A stretch of 64,000 nt of DNA from Squalus acanthias (GCA_030390025.1 CM059431.1:149980001-150044000), one strand, 5' to 3'. Shown: positions 10,137-57,292, counted from the first letter of the stretch. The notes: a model not told the origin generated them from the sequence alone. Numbers and translations: made by a program.

Positions 10137-10607
10137 GGGCCAGAAATTCATCTGGCTCCGTTCCCGCGGGTGTAAGGAGCAGGCGCGGTAATACATACCG
10201 CGTCTGCCGTTTCCTCTTTTTCACGTTGAAAATTCATCTTCTGGCTGATTGAGTGCAGGGCAGCGTATGACGTCACACTGCCCTGCAGCGCAGCGTGCGC
10301 GTTGCATCGCGTGCGATGTGGAGTGAAGACACGCCCATTAAGGTCTCTTTTCCATAGGCCACGCCCCCGATTTTTTTCTCCACTGCAGCCATTGTAAAGC
10401 AGCTGGAGACACAGTTTTCTCACTGTTTCAGGTGGAATTTGCAGTAAGTAGGTTTTAAATGCATGGTTTTGTAAACTTTTAAAGATTTTTAGTATAATTT
10501 GAGTAATGTTAAACATTTGCAAAGAGATTTAAAGTAATTTAAGTACTTTTAAAAGTTCAGAAATCATTTTTTTCAGAGATTTAACTGTTTATAATCAGCA
10601 AACGAAA

Positions 10608-12098
10608 ATGGCTGCTATCAGCACTATCCAATTTATAAAAAGAACACAGAATTTCAGTGATGATGATCTCCGTACACTTCTTGACGAGGTAGAATCGAAA
10701 CGTTCACGGATAATTGGAACTCAGAAGTCCAAGCCGCCGCGAAAAGGCCAAATGGCAGCGTGGAAAGAGGTTGCTCAAAGTGTGAGCGCAACCTCGACCA
10801 TTCCACGTACAGCCGAGCAATGTCGCAAAAAATTCAGCGATTTATATCGAACGCTGAAGGTTTGTATAGTTATAACAAAAGTCAATGTTAAAATGTCTTT
10901 ACATTTAAAATGAAAAGCCTTGAAAAAGTGTTTGTTTGCTAAGCTGAGTTAACTGAAGTCACAAGATGCTACCATAAATTTTTGTGGCTTTTGTAGCCAG
11001 GCAAGTCTCATAAAATGCTAATGTCATCTTGATTGAAATGCTTTGAGTTGCTTACTGAGTTAACTGTGTGAGTGCCAATGCAGTTCTGGTGTAAAAACCC
11101 TTACATTTCAGATTTTCATTTTCAATTTTAGAGTAAAACTGCTCACAACGCCAGAGAACGTTCACTGACAGGCGGTGGTGTTGTCATGTTAAGGGCTTTA
11201 ACCGAACATGAGGAAAGGCTCGAGCATATCTTTGGATATCTTAGCGGATGTCCCTTTGGAAATGAACGATTCGACAAAGGTGATGTGTGCTGAATAGCTT
11301 CTGTGATGTGGCACATCATGCTTTACCTTTGCTAATCTTTACTGTTTCCTTTACATTGGTTTTGAGCATACTTCTCAGTCACGGGATGAGCAGTGCGTTG
11401 AGTCTGCAGCCAAAGAGGTAATTAGTGAAGGGCATGTTGAGCCAGTGGGAGATGCGAGTGAGGTGTTGGTGGAGGAGCAGCAGGAGGAAGTTTTTGCTGA
11501 ATTAAACATGGAGGCTCTGGAATCTGGGTTGCAGGAGAGGTCCTCTCAATCTTCCTCTCCAACTCCTGGCCCCTCTGGCTCTGTGCCAAACAGACAGCAG
11601 CTTGATACTACAGTGCCTGTGGGAGACACAGATATATATGCAGCAGAACAGGTGATGCATGGTGACATCCACCAACTTGTAGGCTTGACTCAATCGATCT
11701 CTTCTATTTCAGAGAAAGAAGTTGATTGTCTTACCTTGGTCAAGCAGGGATTGGGAAATCTGGGAATGGAGCTTAAGAATATAAATGAGTCTCTTGAAGG
11801 AATGTTGCAGAAACCCGATGTGGGAGTGCAGCTTAGTAAAATAACTGAGTCTCTTGAAGGAATGTTGCAGAAACCCGATGTGGGAGTGCAGCTTAGTAAA
11901 TTAAATGAGTCTCTTGAAGGACTGGTGGGAGTGCAGCTTAGTAAAATAAATGAGTCTCTTGAAGGACTCATGCGAATAATTTCTGCTGCAATTACTGTGA
12001 CTCCATCAGAACCAACCTTACCTGCTCCCAGCGCAGAATCAGTGCAGGTCCAAGAGCCACCAACGATGATGCAATCAAGAAAGCGCAAGAGACGTTAG
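10608..12098 (+). CDS. Harbinger Myb/SANT-like (MSANTD/trihelix-type) DNA-binding protein, 3 coding exons: 10608-10859, 11132-~11279, ~11379 or 11410-12098
   Basis: Exon 1: NFSDDDLRTLLDEVE...AWKEVAQSVS...RTAEQCRKKFSDL, then aag|gtttgt. After ttttag| exon 2 reads in frame SKTAHNARERSLTGGG, a typical Harbinger Myb-protein motif. Exon 3 is acidic/coiled-coil and ends SRKRKRR. The exon 2/3 junction is uncertain. Confidence 0.85.
11761..11968 (+). repeat. In-frame 60-bp tandem repeat inside the Myb gene (ESLEGMLQKPDVGVQLSK)
   Basis: The 60-bp blocks at 11761 and 11821 are near-identical, followed by a 45-bp and a partial copy. Confidence 0.95.
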
Positions 12099-12603
12099 GG
12101 TGTTGCATGTTCCACAATGCACATCCATTGACCCTCAGGAATAGTTTATTTGTGGTTAAATTTCTCAAGTGTTTACTTTTTAGTTTTATTTAAAACTTAC
12201 ATGTTTACATTTTTCTTTATTTATATATATATTTGACACTGAAACTGAAAGTTAGCTTTTCATTGAAAAAGTACAGCCTTTAGTCACTTTATAAAAATTC
12301 AAATTGTTTATTTTCACAAAAAAATTGAACATTTAAACTTGTTTACATATAGGAAAGAGTTATTTCCCATCTTGAATGTCTTTACTGCATTAACGAAGCA
12401 AAAAAGTTACTGAGAACTGTTAACAAATTTGTGAAAAACCTATTTCTGTTTACGATTGTTTACAAAGTTGAAAAGTAGCTAGTTAACATTGAAAAGTTAT
12501 AAACTATGTAAAGCAACAATGAACCTCAGAAGTCTGTAATGCTGCAATAAAAGAGCACTGTTTCACTTTAAATTGTGTCTGTACCTTTATTTGCCTTGCT
12601 GGT

Positions 12604-12808
12604 GGAGAGGGAGGGGGAGGGGGAGAGGGAGAGGGATGGGGAGAGGGAGGGGGAGGGGGAGGGGGAGAGGGGAGGGGGAGGGGGAGAGGGGAGGGGGAGG
12701 GGGAGGGGGAGAGGGGAGGGGGCAGAGGGGAGGGGGAGGGGGAGAGGGGAGGGGGAGGGGGAGAGGGGAGGGGGAGAGGGGAGGGGGAGGGGGAGAGGGG
12801 AGGGGGAG
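12604..12808 (+). repeat. (GGGGAG/GGGGAGAG)n polypurine tract
   Basis: About 200 bp of almost pure G/A between the two convergent Harbinger genes. Confidence 0.95.
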
Positions 12809-12827
12809 CGGGAGATACAAGGCGACA

Positions 12828-13979
12828 CTACCTCGTGAAGGTGTTGGCTACCAGCTGCTCCCTTGCAGCCTTACTTTGAGCAGCAGTTGGCTCTTCCCCA
12901 TCATGCCTTCCCACAGGCACATTGGCATTGTCCACGTCCTCCATTTCTGCAGGTAGTTCATCTGCAGCGTTAAGGGTCAGTCCTTCCTGCAGGGCAAAGT
13001 TATGCAAAGCACAACAGGCCACCACAATCTTTGCCACTTTCTGAGGAGAATACTGCAAGGTCCCCCCTGACCTGTCCAGGCACCGGAAGCGTGATTTCAG
13101 AACTCCAATTGTCCTCTCCACCACTTGCCGTGTGGACACGTGTGCCTGGTTGTATCTCTCCTGAGCCTCATTATTGGTCTTGCGGTAGGGAGTCATCAGC
13201 CATGGTCTTAGCGGGTAGCCCTTGTCGTTCAATATCCATGCGGATCCTGGAGGCAATGCGTTGAGGACGCCATATAAGTCAGAGTTACGGAGGACGAAGG
13301 AGTCATGATTACTTCCACGGTTACCTGCATTCACATTTAAGATCCTGAGATGCGCATCACAGACAATCTGGACATTCAGTGAATGAAACCCCTTCCTGTT
13401 GATAAATGTCACAGGTGCAACCCCTGGTGCCTTCAATGCTACATGGGTTCCATCGACAGCCCCAATCACTTTGGGGAATCCAGCAATGTTATGAAATGCA
13501 AGCGCCATCTCCTTTTGATGGCGAGCAGACAAGTCATACTTAATGAACTCAGAAGCCCTACGGTAAATGGCTTCTGTGACCTGGTGAATGCAGGCCCTCG
13601 CAGCATTCTTGGATATGTTGCAATTGTCACCGGTGCTTGCCTGAAAAGTCCCACTTGCAAAGAAGTTCAGTGCTGTGGTTACCTTCATGCTCAGTGACAA
13701 TGCATTGCGTTTCTTCGTGCGTGTTTGAAGGTCCTCCTGTAACATCTCACAGATTCGGCCAATTGACTCTTTACTGAAGCGCAGCCTCCTCACACACAGC
13801 TCCTCCGACAGCATCTCAAATGACAGCCTCTGCCTGTACACTCTATTTGGTGGGTAGTAGTTTCTCCTTCTCTGGAGGAGACGGGCTTGGTTCCTCCGTC
13901 TGATTCGTTGTCTGTATTCGAAAATTCTCAGATACGTAATCACACAGAGGAGGAAGAACAATCGATTGCAAAAGGGCAT
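12828..13979 (-). CDS. Harbinger DDE transposase (HARBI1-like, DDE_Tnp_4 family), 383 aa
   Basis: Uninterrupted ORF with LRFSK, ALNFFASG, FPKVIGAVDGTHV, NRKGFHSLNVQIVCD, GSNHDS, DKGYPLRPWLMTP, YNQAH..TRQVVERTIGVLKSRFRCL, IVVACCALHN. Confidence 0.96.
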   Translation of the reverse strand: MPFCNRLFFLLCVITYLRIFEYRQRIRRRNQARLLQRRRNYYPPNRVYRQRLSFEMLSEELCVRRLRFSKESIGRICEMLQEDLQTRTKKRNALSLSMKVTTALNFFASGTFQASTGDNCNISKNAARACIHQVTEAIYRRASEFIKYDLSARHQKEMALAFHNIAGFPKVIGAVDGTHVALKAPGVAPVTFINRKGFHSLNVQIVCDAHLRILNVNAGNRGSNHDSFVLRNSDLYGVLNALPPGSAWILNDKGYPLRPWLMTPYRKTNNEAQERYNQAHVSTRQVVERTIGVLKSRFRCLDRSGGTLQYSPQKVAKIVVACCALHNFALQEGLTLNAADELPAEMEDVDNANVPVGRHDGEEPTAAQSKAAREQLVANTFTR

Positions 13980-14744
13980 CTTTCTCTCACACAGGCTTCC
14001 TCCTCAAACTGAAAGTTGGAATGAAAAAATGGAAATAGTTGTTAAAGTAACTTTAGTTAAGTGAGTGGCTATAAAATCAGGTCAGGCTATGGTGGGACAC
14101 GTGCGCTATCAGCTTGGGAACACATCTACCCGCCACACGGCCCTAGCTGATTTTCCAAACCTGTAACATTTTCATAAATTCATACATACATACATACATA
14201 CTTACTTACTTACTCATTTTCATCTTTAAAACTTTTTGAAACGTAAACAGTTCATTTTTAAACTTTCATTTTCACAGATAGATACCTAAATATGCCTTGT
14301 ACACACCCACAGTTGCTATACTACTCCAAATGGTCAAAACCCGTTTTAAATTTTTTTTTTTTAAACTCTTAACTTATATAAGACTTCATTTAAAACTTTT
14401 GTGTCTTTCAAATTTAAAAAACTCACCTCAGTAGCCACACTCCAAAAGGATTTCTTCCTCCTACTTATCTCGGCAAATGTATAAATGGCTGCTGCTCCTG
14501 CTTTTAAAATGTGTAACTGCTCGGAGCTTACACACACTACTCTCATTCACAAAATACATGAATTTTCCGACGCACGCGCAGAATCACCAGCCCACGCGAT
14601 TACTCGCAGATCCATGAAACTGACCAGACATGAAGTGCCGGTTTTCAGCGCATGCGTAGTGCATGCAGAAAACCGGCAATTGAAGAGGGAATACGCGAGT
14701 GTACGCAGTGCGTACTCTCGCGCACCAGGATGAATTTTTGGGCC

Positions 14745-16282: not shown

Positions 16283-16859
16283 GACACTAATAGCATCAAT
16301 GCAGGGTTTCCTTCTTCTATTAATAAGGGATTCAATTCAATATGTTATCACATAGTGTCAGTGAGAGCATCACCTCCGGCACTAACAGGGATCTGTACGC
16401 TGCTCCACAGAGAGGGAGTCGGAATCTGAGAACAATAGATTGGAATGTTACAGCAATGGATCAGAATCTGAGAACAGTAGATTGGAATGTTACAACAATG
16501 GGCAGGAGTTTCATGTGGGAGATTGACCATCTTTCTGCATCTTATGATGGAATATCATTAAATATCTGGTTCTTGTTCGCACTTAAGATTATTCAACACT
16601 TTTACTATCCGCTGCTTGCTGCTGTAGGTGTTCCTGGTAAGTCTGTCTCTCCAGCTATTCTATTAACCATGTTTAACAGCATTACTGTACTTGTCATTTA
16701 CTCTCCCCTCCTTGTAGGTTTGTTGTTGCTTGTAAGTCTCTGTATCCAACTCTTAACTCTGCAAACATTTGCTAACTGCATTAATGCTCCTGTACTTTAC
16801 TCTCTCATCTTTGCCCTGTTAAGTCTCTATATCCAGCAATTACATCTGTAATCCAATGA

Positions 16860-17160
16860 ATCACCACCTCCACAATATCACCCGTCTCCGTCCCGACTCA
16901 GCCATTCCGCTGCATTAACCCCATTTGTTAAATCCAGAATCGACTATTCCAATGCTTTCCAGGCCGGCCTCCCAGTTACAAGGCTCCATAAACTAGAGCT
17001 CATTCAAAACTCTACTGTCCATATCCTAACATGCATCATGAGCCGTTAACGCATCAACCATGTGTTCGCTGACCTAGATTTGCACCCGATCTGGCAACAC
17101 CTGGAGCTTAATAGTCTCCTCCTTGTGTTCATATCCCACAATGGCCTCACCCCTCTAAAT
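16860..17160 (+). mobile_element. L2 LINE fragment
   Basis: Translates to an NITRLRP...SRIDYSNAFQAGLP...LELIQNS-like L2 RT C-terminal region. Confidence 0.7.
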
Positions 17161-17349
17161 TCGTCCCATTCCCCTGCTCTTTTCCCATAGTCCTGCACAT
17201 TTTTCACCTTCAAGTATTTATCCAATTCCCCTTTTGAAGGTAATTTATTTTCCTCTGTAACTCTCCCAGTTTTTCAGTCTCTATTTTTCTTTCTCTCTTT
17301 CTCTTTCTCTCTCTCCCTCTTCTCTCTGTCTCTCTTTTGTCTCGTGCTC

Positions 17350-17690
17350 ATAGAACCATAAAATGCTGCCGTCTCGTTGAAAGAGCTGTCTAATTAGTCC
17401 TAATCTTTAGCCAGACCCCAGTAAAAATGCCCCGTTCAACTTAGAATCGAATTCCCTGTCGAAACTTACTATTGAATCTGCTTCCATCACGGTCTCAGAC
17501 AGAGCCTTCCAGATCACAACAACTCACTGCATAAAGAAAACTCCCCTCATATCTTCTCTGTTTTTTTTGCCAATTACCTTAAATCTGTGACTGCTGGTTT
17601 CACATCATTTTGCCACTGGAAACAGTTTCGACTTATGGACTCGATCAAAACCCATCATGATTTTGATCATCATTATTAAAACTCCCATTA
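17350..17690 (-). mobile_element. CR1 3' fragment
   Basis: catagaaccata tail and reverse-complement ORF2 end. Confidence 0.65.
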
Positions 17691-17694
17691 TGTT

Positions 17695-18710
17695 AAAGGA
17701 CAAAGATAGAACATGTGTAAAAGTTCTCAATTGCAGAAAGGCTAATTTTACTAAGCTGCGATGTGATTTAGCAAAAGTGGATTGGAAACAGTTACTTTAA
17801 GGGAAATCAGTGGCAGCAGTGGGAAGCATTCAAGAAGGAGATCGTGAGGGTTCGGAGCAGATATATTTCCACAAAGAAATAGGATGAGAACCCAATTCTA
17901 GAGTATCCTGGATGTCAAGGATAATACAGATTAGGATACGAAGAAAAAGGGAAGCATTTGACAGATACCGAGAGCTCAATACTACAGACATCCCAGAGGA
18001 GTGTAGAAAGTGCACGGTTGAAATTAAAAATGCAATTAGGAAGGCAAAGAAAGGGCATGACAAATATTGCCAAGGTGATTTTGTGACTGGATGACTGTTT
18101 CCAGTGCGGTTCCGCAGAGCCGCATTGTCGGCCCCCTGCCTTTTGTGATATATAACAATGATCAATACTTCAATGCTGAGGCCATGATTAAGAAGTTTGT
18201 AGATGATACAAAAATTGGCAGTGTGATAGATAGTGAGGAAGATAGTTGTAAACTGCAGGAAGATATCAATGTACTGGTCAGATGGGCAGAAAAGTGGCAA
18301 ATGGAATTCAATCCAGAGAAGTGTGAGGTCATGCATTTGGGAAGGGTAACAAGGCAAGGGAATACACAATAAATGCTAGGGTACTAAGAAGTGTATAGAA
18401 TCATAGGGACCTTGGAGTGCATATCCACAGATCCCTAAAAGTAGCAGGACATGTAGATGGGGAGGTTAAGAAGGCATATGAGATTATTTGCTTTCGTTGC
18501 CGAGGCATAAAACATAAGAGCAGGGAAGTAATGCTGGAACTGTATAAAACACAAGTTAAGTCAAAGCTAAGAGTACTGCATACAGTTCTGGTCGCCACAT
18601 TACAGGAAAGGTGTGACTTCACTCGATAGTTTACAGAGGAGATTCATGAGGATGTTACCAGGACTGGAGAATTTTAGCGATGAGGAAAGATTGGATAGGC
18701 TGGGGCTGTT
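17695..18710 (+). mobile_element. Internally deleted CR1 ORF2 fragment
   Basis: KFVDDTKIG, WAEKWQMEFNPEKCEVMHLGR, LQRRFMRMLPGL motifs. Confidence 0.88.
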
Positions 18711-18711
18711 A

Positions 18712-19250
18712 ATTGCAACAGCCTTTGCAACTTGTCCTGCCACCTTCACAGATTTGTGTAAGTACAGCCCAGGTCTCTCTGATCATGCACCCGCTTTAAA
18801 AATGTACCGTTTAGTTTATATTGCCTCTGCTCATACTTCCTACCAAAATGTTTCACTTCGCACTTCTCTGTGTTAAATTGTATCTGCCATGTACCGGCCC
18901 ATCTCACCAATCTGTCCGTGTCCTCCTCAAGACTGTTGCTACCCTTCTGATTCTTTATTAACATTGCTGTCATTACTGACATCAGCAAACTTTTAAATTA
19001 TGCGTTGAATACCCATGTCTATGGCATTGATGTACATCAAAGGAGCAATGCCCCCAACAACGACCCCTGGGGAACACCACTGTATACTTCCTTTCGTCCT
19101 GAAAAACAACCGTTTACCACAACTCTCTGCTTTCTGTCACTTAGCCAAAATCCGAGCCATGTTGCCACTGCCACTTTAATCACTTGGACTTCAATTTTGT
19201 TTTCATGTGATACTTCATCAAACACCTTTTCAAAGCATAGCGACATTGGG
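18712..19250 (-). mobile_element. CR1 RT fragment
   Basis: WLSDRKQRVVVNGCFSG..VYSGVPQGSLLG and WQIQFNTEKCEVKHFGR on the minus strand. Confidence 0.88.
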
Positions 19251-19547
19251 AAAGTGTGGGCAGTAGCAATCATAGAACAATAGAATTGGTGAGACAAGTT
19301 GTGTGGACGCCCCGCTCTGATCACAGGCCTCATTCCCATTTTATTATTTGTATTAATTTATTCTCTGGATATTGTAATGCTTTTAAGGCAGGTATTACTT
19401 GCCCATTCCTAGATACCCATGAGAAAATGGTGGACTTTCGTCTTGAACCGCTGCAGTCCGTGTGGTGAAGGTGCACCCACAAAACGGTTACGGAAGAAAT
19501 TTTAGGCTTTTGATCCAGTGACATGAAGGAATGGGGATATGTTTGAA

Positions 19548-19945
19548 GGGTACGGTAGCATAGCAGTTATGTTGCTGGACTAGTAAACCAGATACCTGAC
19601 AAATGATCCAAAGTCCACCAGCTGGGGAATTTAAATTAAATTAATTAAACAATTCAGGAAGAAAAAGCGATTGTCGATAATGGTGACCATGACACTACCA
19701 GATTGTCGTAAAACCAATCTGGTTCACTAATGTCCTTTAGGGAAGAAAATCTGCTGTCCTTACCCATTCTGGACGAAATGTGACTCCAGACCCACAATAA
19801 TGTGATTGAGTATTTACTGCTCCTCTGAAATGGCCGAGCAAGCCTCTCAGTTGTATACGCTGGCTCATCATAACCTTCTCAATGGCAGTTAGGGAAGGGA
19901 AATAAATGCTGGCCTTGCCAGCGACGCCCCCATCCCAAGAATGAT
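19548..19945 (+). mobile_element. tRNA-headed SINE whose 3' tail is shared with the LINE at 9510
   Basis: ggtagcatagcagttatgttgctggactagtaa head; 3' ccttctcaatggcagttagggaagggaaataaatgctggccttgccagc matches the reverse complement of 9523-9593. Confidence 0.7.
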
Positions 19946-20499
19946 TTTTTTTAAGTCCATTTCTGGATGCTATGTGAGTTGAAGTGAGTAATTGGAGGTG
20001 GTGGTCTTTTGAGCTAGAGTCTGACCGAATTCTACCCCCTCACCTGTGCCTCCTCCCCCTGATGCCATTTGTAGGAATCCAGCTGCAGCCCTGCGGGTGA
20101 AAAGTACTTACGGTAAAATACTAAACAGAAACAATGTAACGTTTGGCATTTTCGGGATACAAGTCCTTTACTGGACCCTTGGCAATGATTTGGGGCTGAA
20201 CACGAGGATGAGAATCTTAAAATCGAGGCATTGCCGATCCGGGAGACAACGTAAGGCAGGGGTGATGGGTGAACGGGACTTGGCGCGAGTTACGACAGGG
20301 TCAGCAGAGTTTGGATCAGAAAGAAATGATTGTTATTAATTTTAGATAAAACGTTATATCTCCGCACCTCTTGAGCATCTGTCACGGAAGATAACAAATG
20401 ACTCTGAATGGGTTCAAGCTGATACTTTGAGAGGCAAAGTCTCAACCCAATTCGTCAGCACGCAGTCACATTTGATATGTGCCGAAGTCGGAAGACAAG

Positions 20500-22065
20500 G
20501 GCCGAGAAATTCGTCTCGGGCGTTGGCACTAAATGTGTGGTGGCGCTAAACGGGCGGTATTGGATCATAACAACATAAGAATTAGGAGCAGCAGTAGACC
20601 ATTTGAACCTTCGAGCCTGCTCCGCCATTCAATTTAATCATGGCTGATCTTGTACCTCATCTGCACTTTCCTGCACTATCCCCATAACCCTTGATAACAC
20701 TTAATATTCAAACATCTAACGAACTCTGTCTTGAATATACTCAACGACTGAGCCTCCACAGCCCTCTGCGGTAGAGAATTCCAAAGATTCACCACCGTCT
20801 GAGTGAATAAATGTCACCTCATCTCAGTCCTAATTGGCCGACCCCTTATTCTGAGACTGTGAACACTGGGTCTAGATTCCCCAGCCAGGGGAAACATCCT
20901 CTGTTCATCTACCCTGTCAAACCCTTTAAGAATTGTGTATGTTTCAATGAGATCACCTGTCATTCTTACAAACTCCAGAGAATATAGGCGTAGTTTACTC
21001 AAACACTCCTCATAGGTCAATCCCCAATCCCAGGAACCTGTCTGCTGAACCTTCTTTGAACTCCATCAATGACAAGTATATCCTTCATTAGTTAAGAAGA
21101 CCAAAACTGCACACAACATTCCAGGTATGGTCTCACCAGGGCTCTATATAATTCCAGTATGACGTCTTTACTCGTATACAGGAATCCTCTTGTAATAAAG
21201 GCCAACATACCATTTGCTTTCCGAAATGGTTGCTGTACCTGCATGTTAACTTCCAGTGATTTTTGTACAAGGACACCCAGGTCCCAATGAACAGCAACAT
21301 TTCCCAATCTCTCACCATTTAAAAAATGCTCTGTATTTCTATTTTTCCTACCAAAGTGGATAACATCATATTTCTCCACGTTGTATTCTATTTGTCATGT
21401 TCTTGTCCACACACTTAGCCTATCTTTTTCCCATTGAAGACTTTTTGCATCCTGCTCACAACTTACATTCCCACCCAGCTTTGAATCACCAGCAAACTTG
21501 GATATAATACATTTGGTCCCCTTATCCAAATCATTGACGCAGATTGTTAATGGCCGAGGCCCAAGCACTAATCCTTGCGGTTCCCCATTAGTTACAGCCT
21601 GGCAACAGGAAATTGACCCGTTTATTCATACTCTTTGATTTCTGTCCGTTAACCAATCCTGAATCCATACTAGTATATTATCCCCAATCCAATCAGCACT
21701 AATTTTGTTTAATAATCTTTTGTTTGGCACTTTATCGAATGCCTTCTGAAAATCCAAAAACACCGCATCCATGGTCCCCTTATCTATACCGCTAGTTACA
21801 ATCTCAAGATCTGTCAAACACAATTTCTCTTTTATAAATCCGTTTTTACGCTGCCCAATTCTATTATAATATTCAAAGTGCCCTGTTATGAAGTCCTTAA
21901 TAATAGATTCAAGCATTTCCCTAATACTGATGTCAGGCTAACTGGACAGTAGTTCCCGTTTTCTCTCTCCCTCCTTTCTTAAATAGTGGGGTTACATTTG
22001 TTACCTGCGTTACACGCAGCTCCTGATATTCAGTGCCACCGCAGTCAATTAAGGATTTCTAGGCC
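20500..22065. mobile_element. Non-autonomous Harbinger-like element (GGCC-ended TIRs), split by CR1
   Basis: Ends ggccgagaaattc / ggatttctaggcc (11/13 inverted match), flanked by AAG on both sides (20497-20499, 22066-22068). Confidence 0.65.
20566..22005 (-). mobile_element. 5'-truncated CR1 LINE
   Basis: Minus ORFs DFQKAFDKVP, LYRALVRPYLECCVQFWS, RLYSLEF; cataagaattaggagc tail. Confidence 0.93.
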
Positions 22066-22254
22066 AAGGTCTTCAATTCTTAACACCAATATTCCAGCAG
22101 AGGTTTCTCCGTAACTCTTCGAAGCCACTTCTGTGTCAAAGAACTAATCTCACTAATCCTGCAACATCAGCACCCCTGTGGTCCCAAACCGCATGGTTCC
22201 CTGTTTAAAAAAAAACCAAAATCCATTCCGGCTCTTCGTAACATTCAATGGACA

Positions 22255-23855
22255 TCTAAACAAGAGGGAGGAGTCACAGCCAGTGTCACAGAAACATTCA
22301 TAATGGCTTTTTAAAGAGACTACCAGTAAAACAGGTTTTCTAAAGAGACAAGACCAGTCAGGCTTTTTAAAGAGAGAGCACCAGCGACACAGGCTTTTTA
22401 AAGGGACAGAACACTTCACACAGGCTTTGTAAAGAGACAGGACCAGTCACACGGGCGCTTTAAGGAGACAGGACCAGTCACACAGCCTTTTTAAAGAGAG
22501 AGGAGCAGTCACACATGCTTTTAAAAGATACTGGACCTGTCATTCAAGAATTTTAACAGAAAAGTCCAATCACACATGGTATTTAAAGAGAAATAACCGG
22601 TGACACAGGCTTTCATAGAATCATAGAATGGTTACAGCAGGGATGAAGAAAATTCGGCCCGTCGAGCCCACGTCGGCTCTCTGCAAGAGCACACCAGCTA
22701 GTCCCACTCCCCCGCTGTTTCCCTCTGCATTATTTTCATTCAGGTACTTATCTAACTCCCTTTTGAAACCATTGATTAAGTCCGCCTTCACCTGCATTTT
22801 AGGCAGTGCATTCCAGATCCTAACCACTCCTTGCGTAAAAAGTTATTTTTTCTGATGTCTCCTTTGGTTCTTTTGCCAATCACCTTAAATCTGTGTCCTC
22901 TGGTCCTCGACCATTTGCCAATGGGCACAGTTTATCTCTATCTGTTCTGTCCAGACCCATCGTGATTTGAACAACGCTATCAAATCTCCTCTCAAACTTT
23001 GCTGCTCCAAGGAGAACAACGCCAGCTTCTCCAATCTAACTACGTACCTGAAGTCCCCCATCCCTGGAATCATTCTCGTAAATCTTTGCTGCACCCTCTC
23101 AAAGGTCTTCACATCCATCCTGAAGTGCGGTGCAAAGAATTTGACACAATAATCCAGTTGAGGCCAAACCAGTGTTTTATACTGGTTCATCATAATTTCC
23201 ACGCTTTTGTACTCTATACCTCTATTCATGAAGCACAGGAACCTGTAAGCTTTTTTAACTGCTTTCTCAAACAGTCCTGCTACCTTTAATGTTTTGTGCA
23301 CATATAACCCGTAGGTCTCTCTGTTCATGCACCCCCTTTAGGATTGTATGCTTTAGTTTATATTTCTTCTCCTCTTTCTTTCTAACACGATGTATCACTT
23401 CGCTTTTTTCTGCGTTAAATTTAATCTGCCACCTGCCCGCCCATTCCACAAGCCTGTCTATTTCCTCTTGAATTCTATCGCTATCCTACTCTCTGCTTAC
23501 TATACTTTTGAAAGACACAGGACCAGTCACACAGATTTTTTAAATGACATAATCAGCCATACAGGCTTATTAAACAGACGGAACCAGTCACACAGTTTTT
23601 TAAAGAACCAGGACTAGTCAGACTGGCTTTATAAAGAGACAGGACCAGTCACACAGGTTTTATAAAGAGAGAGGACAAGACGCGCAGGCTTTCTAAAGAG
23701 ACATGATCTATCACACAGGCTTTGAAAGAATCAACACGAGTAACACAGGCTTTTAAAGAGACAGAATCAGTCACACAGGCTTTTCAAAGAGACATGACCA
23801 ATGTCACAGGTTTTTAAATGAAAAAGGACCAGTCACTCAGGCTTTTCAAAGAGAA
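22255..23855. repeat. ~31-bp minisatellite (aaagagacaggaccagtcacacaggcttttt), interrupted by CR1 at 22615-23500
   Basis: The unit recurs on both sides of the CR1. Confidence 0.85.
22615..23500 (-). mobile_element. CR1 3' fragment
   Basis: ORF 22885-23328 YKTLVWPQLDYCVKF..ERVQQRFTRMIPG; catagaatcatagaa tail. Confidence 0.92.
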
Positions 23856-23875
23856 AAAAATGACATAAGCAAAAG

Positions 23876-23940
23876 GGCCGAGAAATTCCTTCTCGGGCGA
23901 CGGCACAAAACAGCTGTTTTTTTATCGGAAATTCTAGGCC
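23876..23940. mobile_element. 65-bp Harbinger-like end-to-end mini element
   Basis: ggccgagaaattcc...gaaattctaggcc; left end near-identical to 20500; no clear TSD. Confidence 0.5.
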
Positions 23941-24064
23941 CCCATATCTGTGCTTACAGATTATTGGACCATTAATGTTCGTTCACAAATTCTAATCTGG
24001 TCCTGAATATGACCCCTTTCAAATTGCTTATTTTGCACACTATTAATTATAATATGTTTAATTC

Positions 24065-24510
24065 ATGGAATGTTGGCAATGCTGGCAATATCAGCCAATC
24101 ACTAATTGTCCTTGAGAAGGTGGTGCTCTAATAATACCTTGAACCGCTGCAGTCCTTGTGGTGAAGATACTGCCCAGTGTCTGACTTTTGTACAACTGAG
24201 TGTCTTGCCAGGCCATGTCAGACTGCAGGGCCGTGTCAGAGTGCAGTTAAGATTCTACCGCATATGTGCAGCCCAAGTAAGGATGGCAGGTTTCCATCCT
24301 TAAAGAATGTTATCGAACCAGTAGGCTTTTTCCTTGACAATCCTGTAGTTTCACGATCTGCATTACTGATACTAGATTTTTAATTCCAAATGTATTTAAT
24401 TAACTGATTTTAAATTCCCCAGCTGTCGAGGTGGGATTGAACTCAAGTCTCATACTTTATTACTCCATGTCTCTGGGTTACTGGTTCAGTAACATAACCA
24501 CCATGCTAAT
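24065..24510 (-). mobile_element. Second copy of the tRNA-headed SINE (as at 19548)
   Basis: Reverse complement has a tagcatggtggttatgttactgaaccagtaa head, B-box-like gagttcaatcccac and the same LINE-like tail. Confidence 0.65.
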
Positions 24511-24804
24511 GTACTTGGTGTCTACAGATAGTAACCCATAACACTATTGACTTCTAGGTGTTGGAGATGCTTTGGGGATTCAGGAGGTGAGTTACTCACC
24601 GCATAATACCCAGCCTCTGACCTGCTGCAGCAGCCAAGGCATTCATGTGGCTGGTCCAGTTGATTTTCCGATCAATCTCGACCACTCGGTTTTTGATGGT
24701 GGAGGGTTTGGTGATTGCAATGCCAATGACTGTCAAGTATAAATGATCTCTTGTTGAATGTGGTCATCGTCGGGCGCTTGTGTGGAGAGAATTTATCTTT
24801 AATG

Positions 24805-25048
24805 ACACCAGGGATGTGGGATTTCAGTTATGTGGAGAAACTGGAGAAGCAGGGATTCTTCGCCCTATAGCAGAGAAGTCTAGGGGGAGATTGAATACAA
24901 GTGCTCAAAATGTTGAGGGTTTATAAACAATAAATAACGAGAAGCTGTTTCCACTGGCTGACCTGTCATTACCAAAGGACGAACCCCGATCACGCAATGA
25001 GATAATCTGGAATGAGCTCTCTGAAAGGCAGCTGGAAGCAAATTCAAT
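24805..25048 (+). mobile_element. CR1 3' fragment
   Basis: PGMWDFSYVEKLEK..EKLFPLA..WNELSE-like coding. Confidence 0.7.
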
Positions 25049-26345
25049 CGGTTCAGTAGGTAGCAAACTCGCTTCTGAGTCAGAAGGTTGTGTGTTCAAG
25101 TCCCATTCCAGCGACGTTAGTCCAAAGATCGAGGCTGAAACTCCCCTGCAGTACTGAGGAAGCACGGCATTGTCAGTGGGGCCGTAAGAAGGGTGCGCTG
25201 AACTGTCGGAGGGTCAGTACTGAGAGACCACTGCACTGTCGGAGGGTCAGTACTGAGCGAGCGCTGCACTGTCGGAGGGTCAGTACGGAGCGAGTGCTGC
25301 ACTATCGGAGGGTCAGTAGGGAGCGAGTGCTGCACTGTCGGAGGGTCAGTACGGAGCGAGTGCTGCACTGTCGGAGGGGCAGTACTGAGGGAGCGCTGCA
25401 CTGTCGGAGGGTCAGTACAGAGCGAGCGCTGCACTGTCGGAGGGTCAGTACGGAGCGAGTGCTGCACTGTCGGAGGGTCAGTACTAAGGGTGTGCTGCAC
25501 TGTCGGAGGTTCAGTACTGAGCGAGTGCTGCACTGTCGGAGGGTCAGTACTGAGCAAGCGCTGCACTGTCGGAGGTGCAGTACTGAGTGAGCGCAACACT
25601 GCCGGAGTTTCAGTACTGAGCGAGCGCTGCACTGTCGGAGGGTCAGTACTGAGCGAGTGCTGCACTGTCGGAGGTTCAGTACTGAGGGAGAGCTGCACTG
25701 TCGGAGGTTAGGTACTGAGGGTCCGCTGCACTGTCGGATGGGCAGTGCTGGGAGAACGCTGCACTATCGAATGGACAGTATTGAGGGAGCACTGTATTGT
25801 CGAAGGGGCAAAAGTGAGTGAGCGCTGCACTTTCGGAGGTGCAGAACTGAGGAAGCCCTGCACTGTCGGAGGGGCAGTGCTGGGGGAACGCTGCACTTTC
25901 GGATGGGCAGTACTGAGGGGGAACTGTATTGTCGAAGGGGAAAAACTGAGCAGGCGCTGCACTGTCGGAGGTGCAGTATTGAGGGAGCGCTGCCCTGTCC
26001 GAAGTGCAATACTGAGGGAGTACTGACTTGTCGGAGAGGCCGTCTTTCGGATGCGATTTTAAACCAAAGCCATGTCTGATCTCTATCAGCTGGAAGTAAA
26101 TGATCCCAGGGCACCATTCGAAGAAGACCAGCGGGGTTTTCCCCAGTGTTCTGGCCAATATTTATCTCAATCAACATCACTAATACAGATCACCTGGTCG
26201 TTATTGCAATGCTGTTTGTGGCAACTTGCTGTGCACAAACTGGATGCCTTGCTTCCTACAGTACAACACTGACTTCACTTCAAAAGTACTTCGTTGCCTG
26301 TGAAGTGCTTTTGGGATATCCCAAGTTCGTGAAAGACGCTCTTTC
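25049..26345 (+). mobile_element. DeuSINE (SacSINE1/AmnSINE1-like) with an internally amplified minisatellite
   Basis: tRNA head ggttcagtaggtagc...ctgagtcagaaggttgtgtgttcaagtccc; Deu-core-like gtctttcggatg...gatccc.gggcac.attcgaagaagaccag; tail cacttcaaaagtacttc.ttg.ctgtgaagtgctttt. Confidence 0.8.
25149..26040. repeat. 33-bp minisatellite (cagtactgagcgagtgctgcactgtcggagggt), ~26 copies
   Basis: 11-aa periodic ORFs (RRVSTERVLHC) confirm the 33-bp period. Confidence 0.95.
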
Positions 26346-26761
26346 TTAGCAGTAAGTTTCAAAAGGTAATTCGATATCGAATAGAAAGGGAGAAATTTTC
26401 AGGACTATGAGGAAACTGTTTAATTGTTCACTACCATTCACGAAAGGATATGACAGCTTTGAAATAATCTAATCGGTTGCCTGAAGATGTGCTGATTCTT
26501 CAGCAGAATTATGTCGGTAGATAGTAATCAGCAGGAAGTTACCTTTCTCATGTCTGAATGGAAGCCGCGATACTTCATTATGTCCTTAAGCAAATTTGAG
26601 GCCTCGCAGGATCTCTCCCAGTCGACTGTATATCCCTGTGTCCCCACCTTTGGTGAGTCTGTCCTGCCGGTGGAACAGGATATACCCTGAGATGGTGATG
26701 GAGGAGTCGGGAATGTTGACTGATAGGAATGGTTTTGTGACTTTGATTGTGCGAGAATTCA

Positions 26762-26816
26762 ATGTTTCCAGAGCGTTTCTATCCCCTTCTTGCTGCTGTT
26801 AGTGTTTCTTGTAAGT
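26762..26816 (+). other. GPCR exon-1-like cassette B (MFPERFYPLLAAVSVS-T|gtaagt)
   Basis: ATG at 26762, open frame, homologous to FYYPLLAAVGVP, phase-1 GTAAGT donor at 26811. Confidence 0.7.
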
Positions 26817-26955
26817 ATTTATATCCAGTTATTAATTATATAAATCATATTATACTGTAATATTATTCTTGCTATTTATCGTGGGTTACTCAGTTATTAA
26901 TGGTATCGTGTGTTTCAAGTTGTTGCATTTTGTTAATGCAAGAGTTGTTGTTTAA

Positions 26956-26998
26956 ATAGAGTGGCACATCCTCGCTGCTATTGGTGATACTGGTAAGT
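26956..26998 (+). other. GPCR exon-1-like cassette C, degenerate (ILAAIGDT-G|gtaagt)
   Basis: atc ctc gct gct att ggt gat act g|gtaagt; in-frame TAA at 26953 and no ATG. Confidence 0.55.
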
Positions 26999-27277
26999 CT
27001 CAGTATCCAGCGATTAATTATATAAATCATGTTTTACTGTATTACTTTTCTTGTCATACTCCATCCCATCCCCAGTGCTGTCGGCTGTTGATTCTGAAGG
27101 TGATACGGTGTTACCAAGATTCATTTGTTCTGTATTCAACTCAAGAAATGATATTGGACGATACTCTTTGCTCAACGAATTCCGTTCTGCTATCGACACT
27201 GAACATTTATAACAGATCAGCAGAATATTGTCTTGATTGAGGAGAGTTTTCAGCAAATGGCGGAAGAACATCACCCT

Positions 27278-27392
27278 GTAACGTTAACTCTCTCTCTCTC
27301 TCTCCACAGATGCTTTCTGACCTGTTGAGTATTTAAAGCATTTTCAATTCTTATTTCAGATTTCCAGCATCCGCAGAAATTTGCTTTTGTTT
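27278..27392 (+). mobile_element. Short interspersed repeat remnant, probably a Penelope-like terminal repeat
   Basis: aacgttaactct...ccacagatgct...gacctg.tgagtattt...ttcagatttccagcatccgcag resembles a common shark repeat; class assigned from recall only. Confidence 0.45.
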
Positions 27393-29572
27393 TCAGCGAA
27401 TGCTCGGTATGGTTACTGACACAGTGTCACAGGAACAAATCCTGACAGATCACACCCACATCTTTAAATGTCTGAAATATCCGCTAATCATTCAGTTCCA
27501 GTCAGTGTCTCCTTTCCCACCATATACAGCTCTGCATTAGTGGCACTGATTCTGTTGGTTAAAATAGGATTATTAGGATAATTTACATTCTCAAAAAAGT
27601 TCACTCAGACATATTTCAATGCGTTTATTTCCAATCTTTGTTTTTGAATTTACAATTGGAGCCCATGCAGGCCAGTCACAGTTCAGTGGATCTCTCAGTG
27701 AGACCCAGAGTGATTCTCTGTTGCCTCCTGCTGTACTGCAGAATAAACAATCCCAGCTGATTGTAACTGAAGTACTGAGGATAAGAAAATCTTTTCATAT
27801 TTTCTCGACTAATATTCTCTGCACAAATTGCAAACCAACAGGTGATAAAGTACAAGGATAAATCTCGTTGCCTGTGTGATAAGTCGCGTAATTATGAAGC
27901 TAAAAAGTGTATTTAGTGGGCTATTACCTGGTCAAAGATAACTATTTATTTTATTTCAGAATCCATTCTTTGCAATGCTATTTGGAAAATCTTCCATTCA
28001 ATGAGCTGCAATTTGCGTATTTCAACAAAACTGTAGAAAGCTCAAAGTTCAAAACAATTCTTATAGCCCAGTTATCTGTATAACTGCAGTGCACTTGTAT
28101 TTATTATCTCAGATTTGCATATTACAGCCGTACATATTAAATACAATTGCCGGTAATTATTGCACGCCAAGCTTGCAGTTTCTGTATTTTGTTGTTGCAT
28201 TCATTTTCAGTTGTAAATATAGCCTGGAACATGAATCTAGGCGGGGTTTCCCCCTCACTAACAACAGGGGCACAGAAGCGAATTGCACCGTTCCAAATGC
28301 TGACTGATCCCGGGACACGAAGGCTTCCTGAGAGTTTCTGGTCCTTTGTGTCCCTGGTACCTCGGGCGGCGCTTTTGTCTGCTGGGCTAAAGGCAGATCT
28401 ACCATTTAATCTCTCATTGATCAAACATCTGTTACTTTCATGTTATCCCCGTTTCATTTATTAATTCCGCAGTGTAATCCCGTTTATTCTTACAATTTTC
28501 AGATCCACGAGTAAAATAATTAGATTATATAATAGAATGTCGCTATTGAGTTGCATCTTTCTCCCCGAATTCCATCAAATGCTGCTCTTGCTCCCAGCCT
28601 GATGTATAATATCCCTGTTTATTTCCCTTCGTTACAGTGAACTTAGTGACGATTGTGATCCTGTCCCGGGGAAAGTGCGGTCTCTCCAAATGTGTCACTC
28701 GGTACCTGGTGGCCATGGCAGCGGTGGATTTACTGGTCGTTATACTCGACCTGATATTGAGGCAGATTCCGATTGCTTATATGGAACAGTTTATTTTCTT
28801 GAATTCATTCCCCGTGTGTAATATCCACGCCATCCTGCTTTATATAGCCACGGACTGTTCTGTCTGGTTCACCGTCACTTTCACATTTGATCGATTTGTG
28901 GCCATTTGTCGCCAGAAGCTGAAAACTAAATATTGCACCGAGAAATCGGCGGCTGTGGTTCTGGGAACAGTGACTGCGCTGAGCGGGTTAAAGAACATTT
29001 TCTGGTATTTTATGTTCACAGATCGGTATATGCTTATGAACTTCCCCTGGTTTTGTGATGTAACAATTCATGTTCTGTTTTCACGGATCTGGGGAGCAAT
29101 CGAGCTCATTCATTATATTCTCAACCCGGGGCTCCCATTTTTGGTGATTCTGCTGCTCAATGCTGTCACCGTCAGACATATTTGAGTGTCCAGCAGAGCC
29201 CGCAGGAGACTCCGGGGTCCCAGCAGTGGGGAGAGTCCCAGAGACCCAGAGATGGAGAGCCGCAGGAAATCCATCATTTTACTGCTTGTTATCTCCGGCA
29301 ATTTCATCCTGTTATGGGCAGCGTTTATGATCTTTGCTCTTTGGAACCGGATGTTTTTTCTGGGGTTTCGGGATGTAGATCCACCTCTTTATTTACAGGA
29401 TCTGGGATTGATGTTGCAGATGCTCAGTTGCTGCACAAATACTGGGATTTATGTCGTGACCCAGACTAAGTTCAGAGAGAGTTGAAGTACGTGGGGAAAT
29501 ATCTCTCCGCTCTGATTATAAAATTCATTAAAGAATGATGTGAATGGAGATTTTGTAGCCTGAAAGCTCCCT

Positions 29573-46224: not shown

Positions 46225-49200
46225 ATCCAAAGTGGTATATCTGTTTGAGAGGGGAATGTCCACAGGGGACCCCTGCACTACCTGCCTGCGCCGACTACTC
46301 TGCCTGGTGGTCACCCATTGCCTTCCTGCCAGTGCAGCCTTTACCTGCGAGTGACCAACTCCCTAAACATGCTATCCACGATGTTCTCAGCATCGCAAGT
46401 GCTCCAGTATGCATCCATTCGCAGCTCCAGCGCCGCAATGCGGTCTGCCATTAGCTGCATCTGGATACACTTCCCGCACACATGGTCAACAGACACTCTC
46501 TTTAAAATGGCCCTTTGATAGAAAGACTCCCTCTTTAAAATGGTCCCTGATGGTGAGACTCCAACTTTAAAATGTTCCCTGATGGTGAGACTCCCTGTTT
46601 AAAAGGGGTCCCTGATGGTGAGAATTTCTCTTTAAATGGTGTGCCTAATAGGAACATTATCTTTAAAAGGTATCCCTGATAAAAAAAAAAACTCTCTCTT
46701 CAAAAGGGGCCCTAGATAGAAAGACTCCCCCTTTAAAAGTGGTCCCTGATGGTGAGACTCCAACTTTAAAATGTTTCCCTGATGGAGACACGCCCTCTTT
46801 AAAAGGGGTCCCTGGTGGAGAGACTCTATCATTAAAATCCGTGAAGCGGATACTCCCTCTTTAAAATGTCCCCTGATGTAGGGATTTAATCTTTAAAAGG
46901 TGTTCCTGATGCTGAAACACCCTCTGTAAAACGGGTCCCTGATGGTGAGACTCCCTCTTTAACAGGGGTCCCTAATGGAAAGATTCCCTATTTAAAAGGG
47001 GACCTTGCTAGACATATTTTCTCTTTAAAAGGGGTACCTGATAGAAAGACTATTTCTTTAAAATGTGTCCCCGTGAATGAGACCCCTTCTTTCAAAGGGC
47101 TCCATGATAGAAAGACTCTCTCTTTAAAAGAGTCCGTGATAGAAAGACTTTCTCTTTAAAAAGGTTCTCTGAAGTTGAGACTCCCTCTTTAAAATGGTCC
47201 CTGTTTGTGAGACTCAATCTTTAAAAGGGGGCCCTGATGGTGAGATTTCCTCTTTATAAAGAGTCCCTGGTGATGAAACAGCCTTTTTAAAAGGGGTCGC
47301 TGATGGTGAGCCTCTTTCAAAGGGTTCCCTAATGGGGAGACTCTCTCTTTAAAAGAGGTCCCTGATAGAAATACTCTCACTTTAAAAGGGATCCCTGATG
47401 CAGAGACACCCTCTTTAAAAGTGGTGCCTGATGGTGAGACTCTCGCTTTAAAAGCGGTACATGATGGTGAGACTATCTCTTTAAAAGCGTCCCTGATGCT
47501 GAATCTCCATCTTTAAAAGGGATCCTTGATGGTGAGCCTGTTCAAAATGATTACTTAATGGGGAGACTCTCTCTTTAAAAGGGGTCCCTTATAGAAAGAC
47601 TCCTTCTTTAAAAAGAGTCCCTGATGCTGAATCACCCTTTTTAAAAGGGGATCCTGATGGTGAGCCTCTTTAAAAGGGTTCCCAAATGTTGATACTCCCT
47701 CTTTAAACAAACTCTGGTGGAGAGACTCTCTCATTAAAAGGGGTCTCTGACGGTTTTACTCCCTCTTTAAAAGTGGTCCCTGATGGGGTAACACCCTCTT
47801 TAAAATGTGTCCCTGATGGAGACAACTCCGCTTTAACAGGGGTCCCTGATGGTGTGTCTTGCTCTTTAAATGGTGTCACTAATAGGAAGATTCTCCTGAA
47901 AGGGGCCCTTGATAGGAAGAATCACTATTTTAAATGGGTCCCCGAGGGTGAGACTCCCTCAAAAAAATCCTCCCTGATGGAAAGACAATCTAGTTAAAAG
48001 GTGTCCCTGATGGGGAGACTCCCTCTTTAAAAGGTGTCCCTGATGGGGAGACTCCCTCTTTAAAAGAGGTACCTGATGGTGAGACTCCCTCTTTAAAAGG
48101 GATCCCTGAGTGTGAGACTCTTTCTTTAATTTGGATCCCTGATGGTGAGACGCACTCATTAAAATGGTTACTGATTGTAAGACTCTCGTTAAAAGGCTTC
48201 CCTAATCGAAAGACTCCCTCTTTAAAATGGTCTCTGATGGTGAGACTCTCTCTTTAAATGGGATCACTGATGGTGAGATTTCCTCTTTAAAAGTGATCTC
48301 TAATGGGGAGACCTTCTCTTTAAAAGGGATCCCACATGGTGAGACTCCCTCTTTAAAAGGGATCCCAGATGGTAAGACTCACTCTTTAAAGGGGATCCCT
48401 GATGTTGAGATTCCCTCATTAAAAGGGGCCCCTGATGGTGAAACTTCCTCTTAAAATTGTTCCCTGATGGTGAGACACTCTCTTTAAAAGGGATCCCTGA
48501 TCTGAAGACTCCCTCTTTATAAGGGGAACACTGATGGTGACACTCCCTCTTTAAAAGGGTTCGCTGATGACGAGAATCTCTCTTTAAAAGGTGTCCCTAA
48601 TAGGATGAATCTCTTTAAAAGGTGTCCTTGATAGAAAGACTCTCTCTTTAAAAGGGATCCTTGATGGAAAGTCTTTCTCATTAACGTGGTCCCTGATGGT
48701 GAGACTCTCTCTTTAAAATGGGTCCCTGATGTTGAGAGTCCCTCTTTAATAGAAGTCCCTGATGCTGAAACATCATATTTTAAAGGGGTCCCTAATGGGG
48801 AGACTCTCTCTTTAAAAGCGTTCCGAAAGAAAGACTCCCTCTTTAAAAAGTGTTTCTGATGGTGAGACTCTCCGATTAAAAGGGTTCCCTGATGATGAGA
48901 ATCCCTCTTTAAATGGGGTCATTGATGGTGAGACTCCGTCTTTAAAAGGGGCCAGTGATGGAGAGACTCCCTCTATAAATGGTGCCCCTGATGGTGAGAC
49001 TCCGTCTTTAAAAGGGGAAACTGACGGTGAGACCCATGTTAAAAAGATTCCCTGATGGGGTGACTCCCTCTTTAAAATGGGTCCCTGATGGTGCGACTCC
49101 CTCTTCAAAAGGGTTCCCTAATGGTGAGGCTCTCTCATTAAAATATGTCCCTGATGGTGAAACACCCGCTTTAAAAGGGGTCCCGGAGGTGAGACTCTCT

Positions 49201-49369
49201 CTTTAACAGGTGTCCCTGATAGAGAGACTCTCTTTAAAAGCGGTCACTGATGCTGATACTCCCTCTTTATAAAGGTTCAATTATGGAGAGACTCTCCCTT
49301 TAAAAGGGGTCCCTGGTTGAGAGATTATCTCATCAACAGGGCTCCCTGACAGGAATACTCCCTCTTTAA

Positions 49370-52300: not shown

Positions 52301-52770
52301 GTGAGTGCAGCGTGGCATGGCAGGAATGACGTATGAAGAGAGATTGGGTCGATTGGGTTTGTATTCGCAAGAGTTTAGAAGAATGAGAGGGGCTCACATT
52401 GAAACTTATAAAATTCTAACAGGACTAGACAGACTAGATGCAGGAAGGATGTTCCCGATGGCGGGGTGTCCAGAACCAGGGGTCACAGTCTAAAGATAAG
52501 GGGTAAGCCTTTTAGGACTGAGATGAGGAGTAATTTCTTCACCCAGAGAGTGGTGAACCTGTGGAATTCTCTACCGCAGAAGACAGTTGAGTCCAATTCA
52601 TTACATATATTCAGAAGGTGTTAGATATATTTATTAAAGCTAAGGGGATCAAGGGATATGGGTCGAAAGCAGGGTCAGGGTACTGAACTTGGATGATCAG
52701 CCATGATCGCATTGGATAGCGGAGCAGGCTCGAGGCGCCGAATGGCTCCTATGTTCTATGTTTCTATGTG
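49370..52770 (+). mobile_element. 5'-truncated CR1 ORF2 (same subfamily as 42443-46495)
   Basis: ORFs at 49434, 49931 and 50423 (VYLDFQKAFD, SGVPQGSVLGP); tatgtttctatg tail. Confidence 0.95.
51530..52146 (-). mobile_element. CR1 3' fragment nested in the CR1 above (subfamily of the 34199-38718 copy)
   Basis: IPGMRGWSYEERLGRLGLYSLEFRRMRG...; agaacataag tail; the host frame resumes gcaaatggtatg. Confidence 0.92.
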
Positions 52771-55700: not shown

Positions 55701-57292
55701 CTTCCTCTTCAAAAGGAATCCCAGATGGGTAATAACCCTCTTTAAAAGGTGTTCCTAATAGAGACACACCTTCTTGAAAAGGGCACCCTGATGGTGAGAC
55801 ACTCTCTTTAAAAGGTGTCCCTAATCGGAAGATTCTCTTTAAAAGGGTTCCTTGATTGAAAGACTCTCTCTTTAAAATTGGAGCCCAAGGTGAGACTCCC
55901 TCTTTAAAAGGGCTCCCTGATGGTGAGACTCCCTCTTTAAAAGTGTCCCTGGTGGAGAGTCTCTCTCACTAACAGGGGTACCTGATAGAAAGACTCTATC
56001 TTTAAATTGTTTCCCCGAGGGAGATACTCCCTCTTTAAAAGGTATCCCTGTTGGTGAGACTCCCTCTTTAAAAGCGGTCGCTGATGGTGAGACGTCCTCT
56101 TTAAAACCGGGTCCCTTATGATGAGACTCTCTCTTTAAAAGCGATCCCTGATGGTGAGACTCCCTCTTTAAAAGGAATCCCTGATGGTGAGACTCTCTGT
56201 TTAAAAGGGGTCCCTGATGGTGAGACTCTCTCTTTAAAAGGGGTCTCTGATAGAAAGACTCCCTCTTTAAAAAGAGTCCCTGATGCTGAAACATCCGTTT
56301 AAAAAGGGGTCCCTGATGGTGAGCCTCTTTAAAAGGGGTCCCTGATGGTGAGATTCCCTCTTAAAAAATGGGCCCCTGTTGGTCAGATTCTCTCTTTAAA
56401 ATGTGTTTCTGATGGTGAGACACCCTCTTTAAAATGGGTCCCTGATGGCGAGTCACTCTTTAAAAGGTGTCCCTGATGGAGAGCCTCTCTCTTAAAAAGT
56501 GGTCCCTGATGCTGAATCACCCTCTTTAAAAGGGGTCGCTGATGGTGAGACTCCCTCTTTAAAAGTGATACCTGATGGTGTGACTCTCTCTTTAAAATCG
56601 GTCCCTGATGCTAAAAGACCCTCTTTAAAAGGGGTCCCTGATAGTCAACCTCTTTAAAAGGTGTCCCAAAATGGAGAATCTCTCTTTAAAATGGATCCCT
56701 GAGAGAAAGTCTCCCTCTTTAAAAAGTGTCCCTGATGCTGAAACACTCTCTTTAAAAGGGTTTCCTGATGATGAGCCTCTTTAAAAGGGGTTCCTAATGG
56801 GGAGACATTCTCTTTAAAAGGGGTCCCTGATAGAAAGACTCTCTCGTTAAAATGTGTCCACGAGTGTGAGACTCCCTCCTTAAAAGAAGTCCCTGATAGA
56901 AAGACTCTCTCTTTAAAAGTGGTCCCTGATGGTGAAACTCCCTCTTTAAAAGGGGTCCCTGATGGTAAGATTCCCTGTTTAAAAGGTATCCCTGATGTTG
57001 AGACACACTCTTTAAAGGCGGTCCCTGATTCTGTAACTCCCTCTGTAAAAGCGATCACTGACAGTGAGGCTCCCTCTTTAAAAGTGGTCCCTGTTGGAGA
57101 GACTCTCTCATTAATAGGGGTACCTGATGGGTATACTCCCTCTTTAAAACGTGCCCCTCATGGAGATAGTCCCTCTTTAAATGGGTCCCTGATGATGAGA
57201 CACTCTCTTTAAAAAGTGTCCTTGCTGATGAGACACCTTCTTTACATGTGGTCCCTTATGGTGAGACACCCTCTTTAAAAGGGGACACTGAC

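Follow-up and report, generated by a model that had tools for sequence, protein, structure and literature searches.

The present analysis concerns a receptor gene in a 64,000-nucleotide stretch of Squalus acanthias DNA (GCA_030390025.1 CM059431.1:149980001-150044000), here called the window, with positions counted from its first letter. Three short segments, cassettes A, B and C, encode related beginnings of a receptor and precede a single exon that codes for most of a seven-transmembrane (7TM) core. We propose, with a probability of roughly 80%, that the locus is a broken two-exon gene of a shark GPR139-like family, in which B and C are what remains, in decayed form and within the intron, of a short first exon whose place was likely taken by the long first exon A. 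B and C probably record past exon swapping, not a working switch between receptor forms.

Cassettes and receptor exon in the window

The gene is composed of the following features:
16318..16328, plus strand: TATA-like box before the long-class first exon, with a homologous counterpart 5' of short-class exons; putative promoter element
16342..16636, plus strand: cassette A, long-class exon 1; open, with phase-1 GT donor; encodes the first half of the first transmembrane helix (TM1)
16697..16851, plus strand: A' (16697-16813) and A'' (16815-16851), decayed tandem copies that span the end of the exon, its donor and the beginning of the intron
26762..26779, plus strand: ATG and first codons of B; intron-derived sequence, deletion junction at 26776-26779
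26776..26810, plus strand: cassette B, 3' remnant of short-class exon 1; phase-1 GT donor; ratio of nonsynonymous to synonymous substitution rates (dN/dS) 1.9
26960..26992, plus strand: cassette C, decayed tandem copy; AG 33 nucleotides (nt) before the donor; no ATG; dN/dS 1.7
28638..29538, plus strand: exon 2 of a GPR139-like rhodopsin-family receptor, covering the remainder of TM1 through TM7 and helix 8; broken

Cassette A comprises 295 nt (16342-16636) and B, counted from its ATG, 49 nt (26762-26810); C was originally delimited at 26968-26992. Each of them ends in phase 1 and is directly followed by GTAAGT, and the single acceptor AG ends at 28637. These coordinates, taken from a preliminary description of the locus, all hold. 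Its remark that no matching 7TM exon lies between the cassettes is confirmed as well, for within the window no second 7TM exon was found besides the one starting at 28638. Homology between the cassettes is above chance (BLASTn E values 1e-8 for A-B, 8e-11 for A-C and 2e-15 for B-C) and extends 25-75 nt into the intron. A donor profile, whose training set included three of the four sites concerned, peaks solely at 16636, 16731, 26810 and 26992 (scores 25-65), while the best control scores are -4.8 on the reverse complement and -1.8 on the reversed sequence.

Exon 2 marks the gene as a rhodopsin-family G protein-coupled receptor (GPCR): the part before its stop matches the 7tm_1 domain above the curated cut-off (38.8 bits vs 30.5). 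It shares 92% DNA identity with exon 2 of the intact paralogue L003 and carries two lesions, a TGA at 29183-29185 and, relative to L003, one missing base near 29479/80. In this it is unlike most paralogues, whose exon 2 is intact. Judged from the assembled sequence, and barring assembly errors at both lesions, no cassette of the locus could yield a full receptor.

Cassette A contains two N-glycosylation sequons within a 14-residue repeat. Its start codon is likely the ATG at 16456 rather than that at 16342, because the latter is GTG in the sole paralogue aligned there and lies only 24 nt past the TATA-like box. The glycosylation unit is encoded by a 42-base repeat (16421-16501), present in 0 to 5 copies in related proteins of other sharks. 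The donor of A' follows 16731 and is out of frame in the window; A'' has no GT.

Window positions 26187-26779 align 1.4-1.75 kb farther upstream in all three closest paralogues, and from 26776 on the sequence aligns to B. By this alignment the ATG and first five codons of B stem from the intron and came to adjoin the B remnant through a deletion. The promoter and 5' part of B are already gone in the window's clade, and in the three closest paralogues homology of B to short-class exons ends about 16 codons before the donor. A likeness of the sequence replacing the 5' part to a Penelope-type element was considered, but Pfam and a pairwise comparison did not support it. C holds an in-frame stop 13 codons before its donor.

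Simple recent tandem duplication of the 3' end of A, with B and C never forming a separate exon class, might be considered in view of the homology of all cassettes and of the like copies directly behind A. Yet the window's B matches the end of short-class exons almost base for base, C lies 182 nt after B where B-only genes have a spacing of 177-183 nt, and annotated proteins of other sharks include short-class N-termini. The first two of these observations appear largely to refute such an origin already, and we hold it to be very improbable. B is better read as the probable remnant of a different, still-living exon class. The alternative named in the preliminary description, relics of exon-1 tandem duplication, was thus the better reading as far as relics are concerned, whereas B as a recent copy of A is not upheld.

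First-exon classes and selection across paralogues

In 34 of 49 paralogues a cassette lies at most 9 kb from the acceptor. Behind every full first exon lie between one and three decayed copies of its end and donor, namely A' and A'' in the case of A, and C and D in that of B; spacing and frame of the copies behind A vary among paralogues. The TATA-like box and 5' untranslated region (UTR) are homologous between A and B; because they are common to both, the two exons are traced to one ancestral first exon.

Three states of the gene can be distinguished. In B-only genes an intact short exon precedes exon 2 by about 2 kb, and a long exon was seen upstream in none of 12 loci with well-kept B (13-93 kb covered; one of them without exon 2 in the 5 kb covered, three with a broken exon 2). 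Genes of the second state possess A and a complete B: in eight of nine loci extended upstream, A was found 16-30 kb before exon 2 with no exon 2 between, and at the ninth the contig end was reached before any A. Long and short first exons facing one 7TM exon, as first noticed in the window, therefore recur in intact paralogues of one clade. The third state, A with truncated B, is that of the window's clade; truncated B is present in 21 paralogues and the window, with A located in three of these paralogues and in the window. In many other paralogues B is truncated or unseen within 9 kb. At C7:148436194-148438088 (L002, L031) an intact 7TM exon is accompanied only by truncated B and by C without GT; as far back as the preceding gene, at a distance of 35 kb, there is no long exon, which makes this an orphan exon 2.

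Signs of decay are unevenly distributed among the exon classes. Copies of C (n=27) carry a stop at most 13 codons before the donor in 24 cases, keep GT in 21 and have an in-frame ATG in 3. Of the 29 B exons of the A+B clade 11 are disabled, whereas none of 29 A exons and none of 30 short-class exons from the other group contains a stop or has lost its GT. The samples of B and A loci each dropped from 30 to 29 through L120 and L147, respectively, both missed by the donor scan.

Selection was estimated from changes counted by parsimony on trees of distinct sequences; identical ones were collapsed, the tree did not include L056 and L083, and a recount used pathway averaging with three kappa values. 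TM1 codons of A show 1 nonsynonymous and 14 synonymous changes (N/S 1/14, dN/dS 0.03, 28 sequences), which means purifying selection. The corresponding values are N/S 7/19 and 0.16 for B-only exons (25 sequences), 14/11 and 0.57 for complete B of the A+B clade (24 sequences; 0.47-0.50 when pathway-averaged), 31/7 and 1.9 for truncated B (20 sequences), and 22/6 and 1.7 for C (22 sequences). Over the whole 30-codon complete B exon of the A+B clade dN/dS is 0.76-0.94, and its tree contains 3 stops, 3 ATG losses and 1 GT loss. Fisher tests separate B of the A+B clade from A (p 0.002), truncated B from B-only exons (p 2e-5) and C from A (p 9e-6). With A at 0.03 against 1.9 for truncated B, 1.7 for C and 0.76-0.94 for complete B, no more than one first exon is found to be kept by selection.

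The working variable-first-exon system suggested in the preliminary description is not supported by these results: in the window the constant exon is broken, the ATG of B is a deletion product and C offers no start of translation, and across paralogues B and C are seen to drift, in contrast to the constraint on A. Neutral drift of B and C was one half of the outcome it had named beforehand as contrary to its proposal, and such drift is observed among paralogues within the S. acanthias genome.

A related reading concerns a subset of intact paralogues and not the window locus. A and B may both be used there from promoters of their own, giving one receptor core either a long glycosylated or a 30-residue N-terminus, with disabled B exons as ordinary birth-and-death losses; such genes would be a two-exon form of the variable first exons known from UGT1 and Gcnt2. 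Eight loci do combine A, complete B and one intact exon 2 with nothing between, homologous TATA-like boxes and 5' UTRs precede A and B, 18 of 29 B exons are formally complete, and UGT1 clusters hold pseudogene and relic exons too, according to PMC1885805. However, the exon-wide dN/dS of B given above, changes at positions that hardly vary in working exons (YHP or YCP in place of YYP, and Asp in place of Gly in TM1), the retention of every core feature in just 2 of 23 distinct B copies, and the truncation or absence of B within 9 kb in many other paralogues make this use of both exons unlikely. The wider picture that would go with it, a shark-specific diversifying GPR139-like repertoire of about a thousand members, one intact clade of which still switches between the two N-termini by alternative promoters on the same 7TM core, seems to us doubtful to a like degree. 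If B were indeed still used in intact genes, they would present a variable-first-exon system in a GPCR family.

Several points weigh against superseded first exons as the explanation. The 18 B exons mentioned keep ATG, open frame, GT and TATA-like box. The contrast between B of the A+B clade and B-only exons is marginal (Fisher p 0.048), and dN/dS of about 0.5 in TM1 of complete B is intermediate and not significantly below 1 (p 0.12), so that partial constraint may hide in it. An upstream A was checked in only some of the 29 B exons of the A+B clade and, as A can be up to 30 kb away, some "B-only" loci read over 15-25 kb may own one. The selection counts come from one genome, BLAST-nearest samples and parsimony, and would be blurred by gene conversion. 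The order of events is unrooted. In the exon-2 tree (79 rows, quick method, weak support) S. acanthias rows group with two long foreign rows at a Shimodaira-Hasegawa-like approximate likelihood ratio (SH-aLRT) value of 83; the tree does not separate long and short classes of other sharks, and no rooted order was drawn from it.

For exon 2 of an intact paralogue no RNA run was listed as a holder; eight runs from two studies, presumed to be RNA, contained 5-10% of its sequence words. Four of these eight were compared with the B-only paralogue L081:6600-10000 (80% likeness), a reference lacking an A exon that could have acted as positive control. A cassette donor joined to the acceptor was seen in 0 of 15 listed joints (of 17), and some contigs are unspliced across the acceptor; the comparison speaks neither for nor against splicing.

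Spare donors could also have functions of their own: C, which is 33 nt long, preceded by AG and in phase 1 on either side, as an internal micro-exon, or A' as an alternative donor, each being included at times and lengthening the TM1 region, or the spare donors as splicing decoys. The 33-nt spacing from AG to GT is found in the window and several paralogues. Among 29 A loci (L141-L170) there are 8 whose A' is open and keeps the frame, so that it would add 32 hydrophobic residues, and an annotated Heptranchias protein (P0028) starts with an A'-like peptide (9/13 identical, pairwise E 0.03). Coding positions of C nevertheless drift (dN/dS 1.7), changes in its GT are about as frequent as in the intron (1.0 vs 1.3 changes per site), and A' is out of frame or stopped in the remaining 21 of 29 loci. 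We give such functions very little credence. The start of P0028 hints, if only weakly, at an old age of the tandem relic and at relics being picked up by gene models, which is a warning for gene models of the whole shark GPR139-like family.

Replacement of a short first exon by a long one, the explanation we prefer, may have proceeded as follows. The starting point would be short-class genes of the kind found in the genome, with promoter-like box, intact B, relics C and D, an intron of about 2 kb and exon 2. Unequal crossover of neighbouring genes, or else the loss of an intervening exon 2, would then have placed a long-class promoter and exon 1 upstream of one of them, at a distance of 5-30 kb, and A, as selection on it suggests, would have become the exon spliced to exon 2. 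The decay of B behind A is visible in the stops, lost ATGs and lost donors described above, with its 5' part gone in the window's clade, and the unit has been amplified to many copies. In the window copy, a deletion has set an ATG before B, and exon 2 has its stop and frameshift. First-exon replacement could be followed here in a clean form across many copies, an exon class being conserved as sole first exon and decaying behind another.

The shark GPR139-like family and the surroundings of the gene

The window gene belongs to a shark GPR139-like expansion, with which it shares best hits, TM1 motif and exon junction. An intact paralogue used as query gave 2402 protein matches; among the best 120, from Heptranchias, Heterodontus and Pristiophorus at 55-78% identity, 119 are named probable GPR139. 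The best match of known structure is human GPR139 (PDB 7VUG, 9M42; E 4e-11, query P0007), aligned from TM1 to TM7. In the S. acanthias genome all 150 scored candidates (of 4088) match, 149 of them being paralogues at 78-92%. One 32-base exon-2 pattern has at least 862 exact genome matches (control 0), a count that may include some genes twice on unplaced contigs and that divergent copies escape. Family members are clustered on several large contigs and many small ones. Such copy number disfavours one-to-one orthology with vertebrate GPR139. Three database models (P0001, P0002, P0019) have duplicated TM6-TM7 or two fused receptor parts and are likely misjoined tandem-array neighbours.

Two N-terminal types occur among the 98 of 120 proteins with located junction motif, a long one with the 14-residue glycosylation repeat and a short one of about 32 residues. 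The N-terminal part of A has dN/dS 2.6-3.6, and eight codons of B-only exons reach about 7 (35 nonsynonymous changes, 1 synonymous). In exon 2 (45 exons, region borders drawn by eye) the ratio is 1.6 in extracellular loop 1 (ECL1) and 1.9 in ECL2, as opposed to 0.28-0.46 in transmembrane and intracellular stretches; values for ECL3 and TM7 are unreliable, as indels shift unaligned codons there. The source of N-terminal diversity is probably the large number of genes, whose first exons evolve fast, rather than a choice of splicing within one gene, and by these sequence measures the family looks like a large diversifying receptor repertoire. The family itself may be the larger lead, as a possible unrecognised sensory or immune receptor repertoire of sharks. 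No description of the expansion or of its exon layout was found in the accessible parts of literature on GPR139/GPR142, sharks and elasmobranch GPCRs (including PMC12294341 and PMC11979771), a search that subscription papers largely fell outside and to which supplementary gene-family tables may add the family.

Upstream of A, at 10533-14003, lies a Harbinger/PIF-like DNA transposon, possibly young, with three frames:
10533-10913, plus strand: Myb/SANT frame
11307-12098: further transposon frame
12828-14003, minus strand: DDE_Tnp_4 transposase, open, 391 residues

The intron contains a 33-base minisatellite (25195-26036) whose copy number is 25 in the window and about 7-8 in the two closest paralogues. 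Approximately 47000-59000 is taken up by a long, degenerate stretch of satellite-like sequence with many spurious frames. Decayed reverse-transcriptase fragments of long interspersed nuclear elements (LINEs) are numerous; the frame at 50417-51538 matches RVT_1 with E 2e-22.

Comparison with known systems

GPR139 is a single-copy gene in humans. It is described in the literature as a conserved receptor of the habenula. The human receptor is distant from the shark family, which has hundreds of copies and fast-evolving extracellular parts. Closer are the shark proteins named "probable G-protein coupled receptor 139", among which both N-terminal classes occur as in S. acanthias; these models bear automatic names, which fix neither orthology nor ligand, and none of them has intronic relic exons.

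According to PMC1885805, several variable exons are functional in each of the UGT1, Gcnt2 and protocadherin clusters; they possess promoters of their own and are joined by splicing to constant exons that are conserved. As treated there, UGT1, Gcnt2 and protocadherin alpha/gamma resemble the shark genes in homologous first exons of the same phase, promoter-like motifs, tandem order, a shared downstream exon, and birth-and-death evolution with relics. The constant part of those clusters is single, whereas in the shark family the 7TM exon has been multiplied hundreds of times, with only one first exon per gene held by selection. At the window locus at least two homologous same-phase exons do precede one shared exon. 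A promoter and start codon for each variable exon are absent there; of the 29 B exons in paralogues, 18 formally possess both as far as the sequence shows. The constant exon of the window has a stop and a frameshift. The locus should probably not be filed as a cluster of the UGT1/protocadherin type, given that the layout is present and start codons, constant exon and selection all fail.

Odorant and vomeronasal type receptors form multigene families that evolve by birth and death. By best hits they are unrelated to the shark family, and they are generally known for the features that it also displays: clustered tandem copies, pseudogenes, a conserved transmembrane core and diversified extracellular loops.

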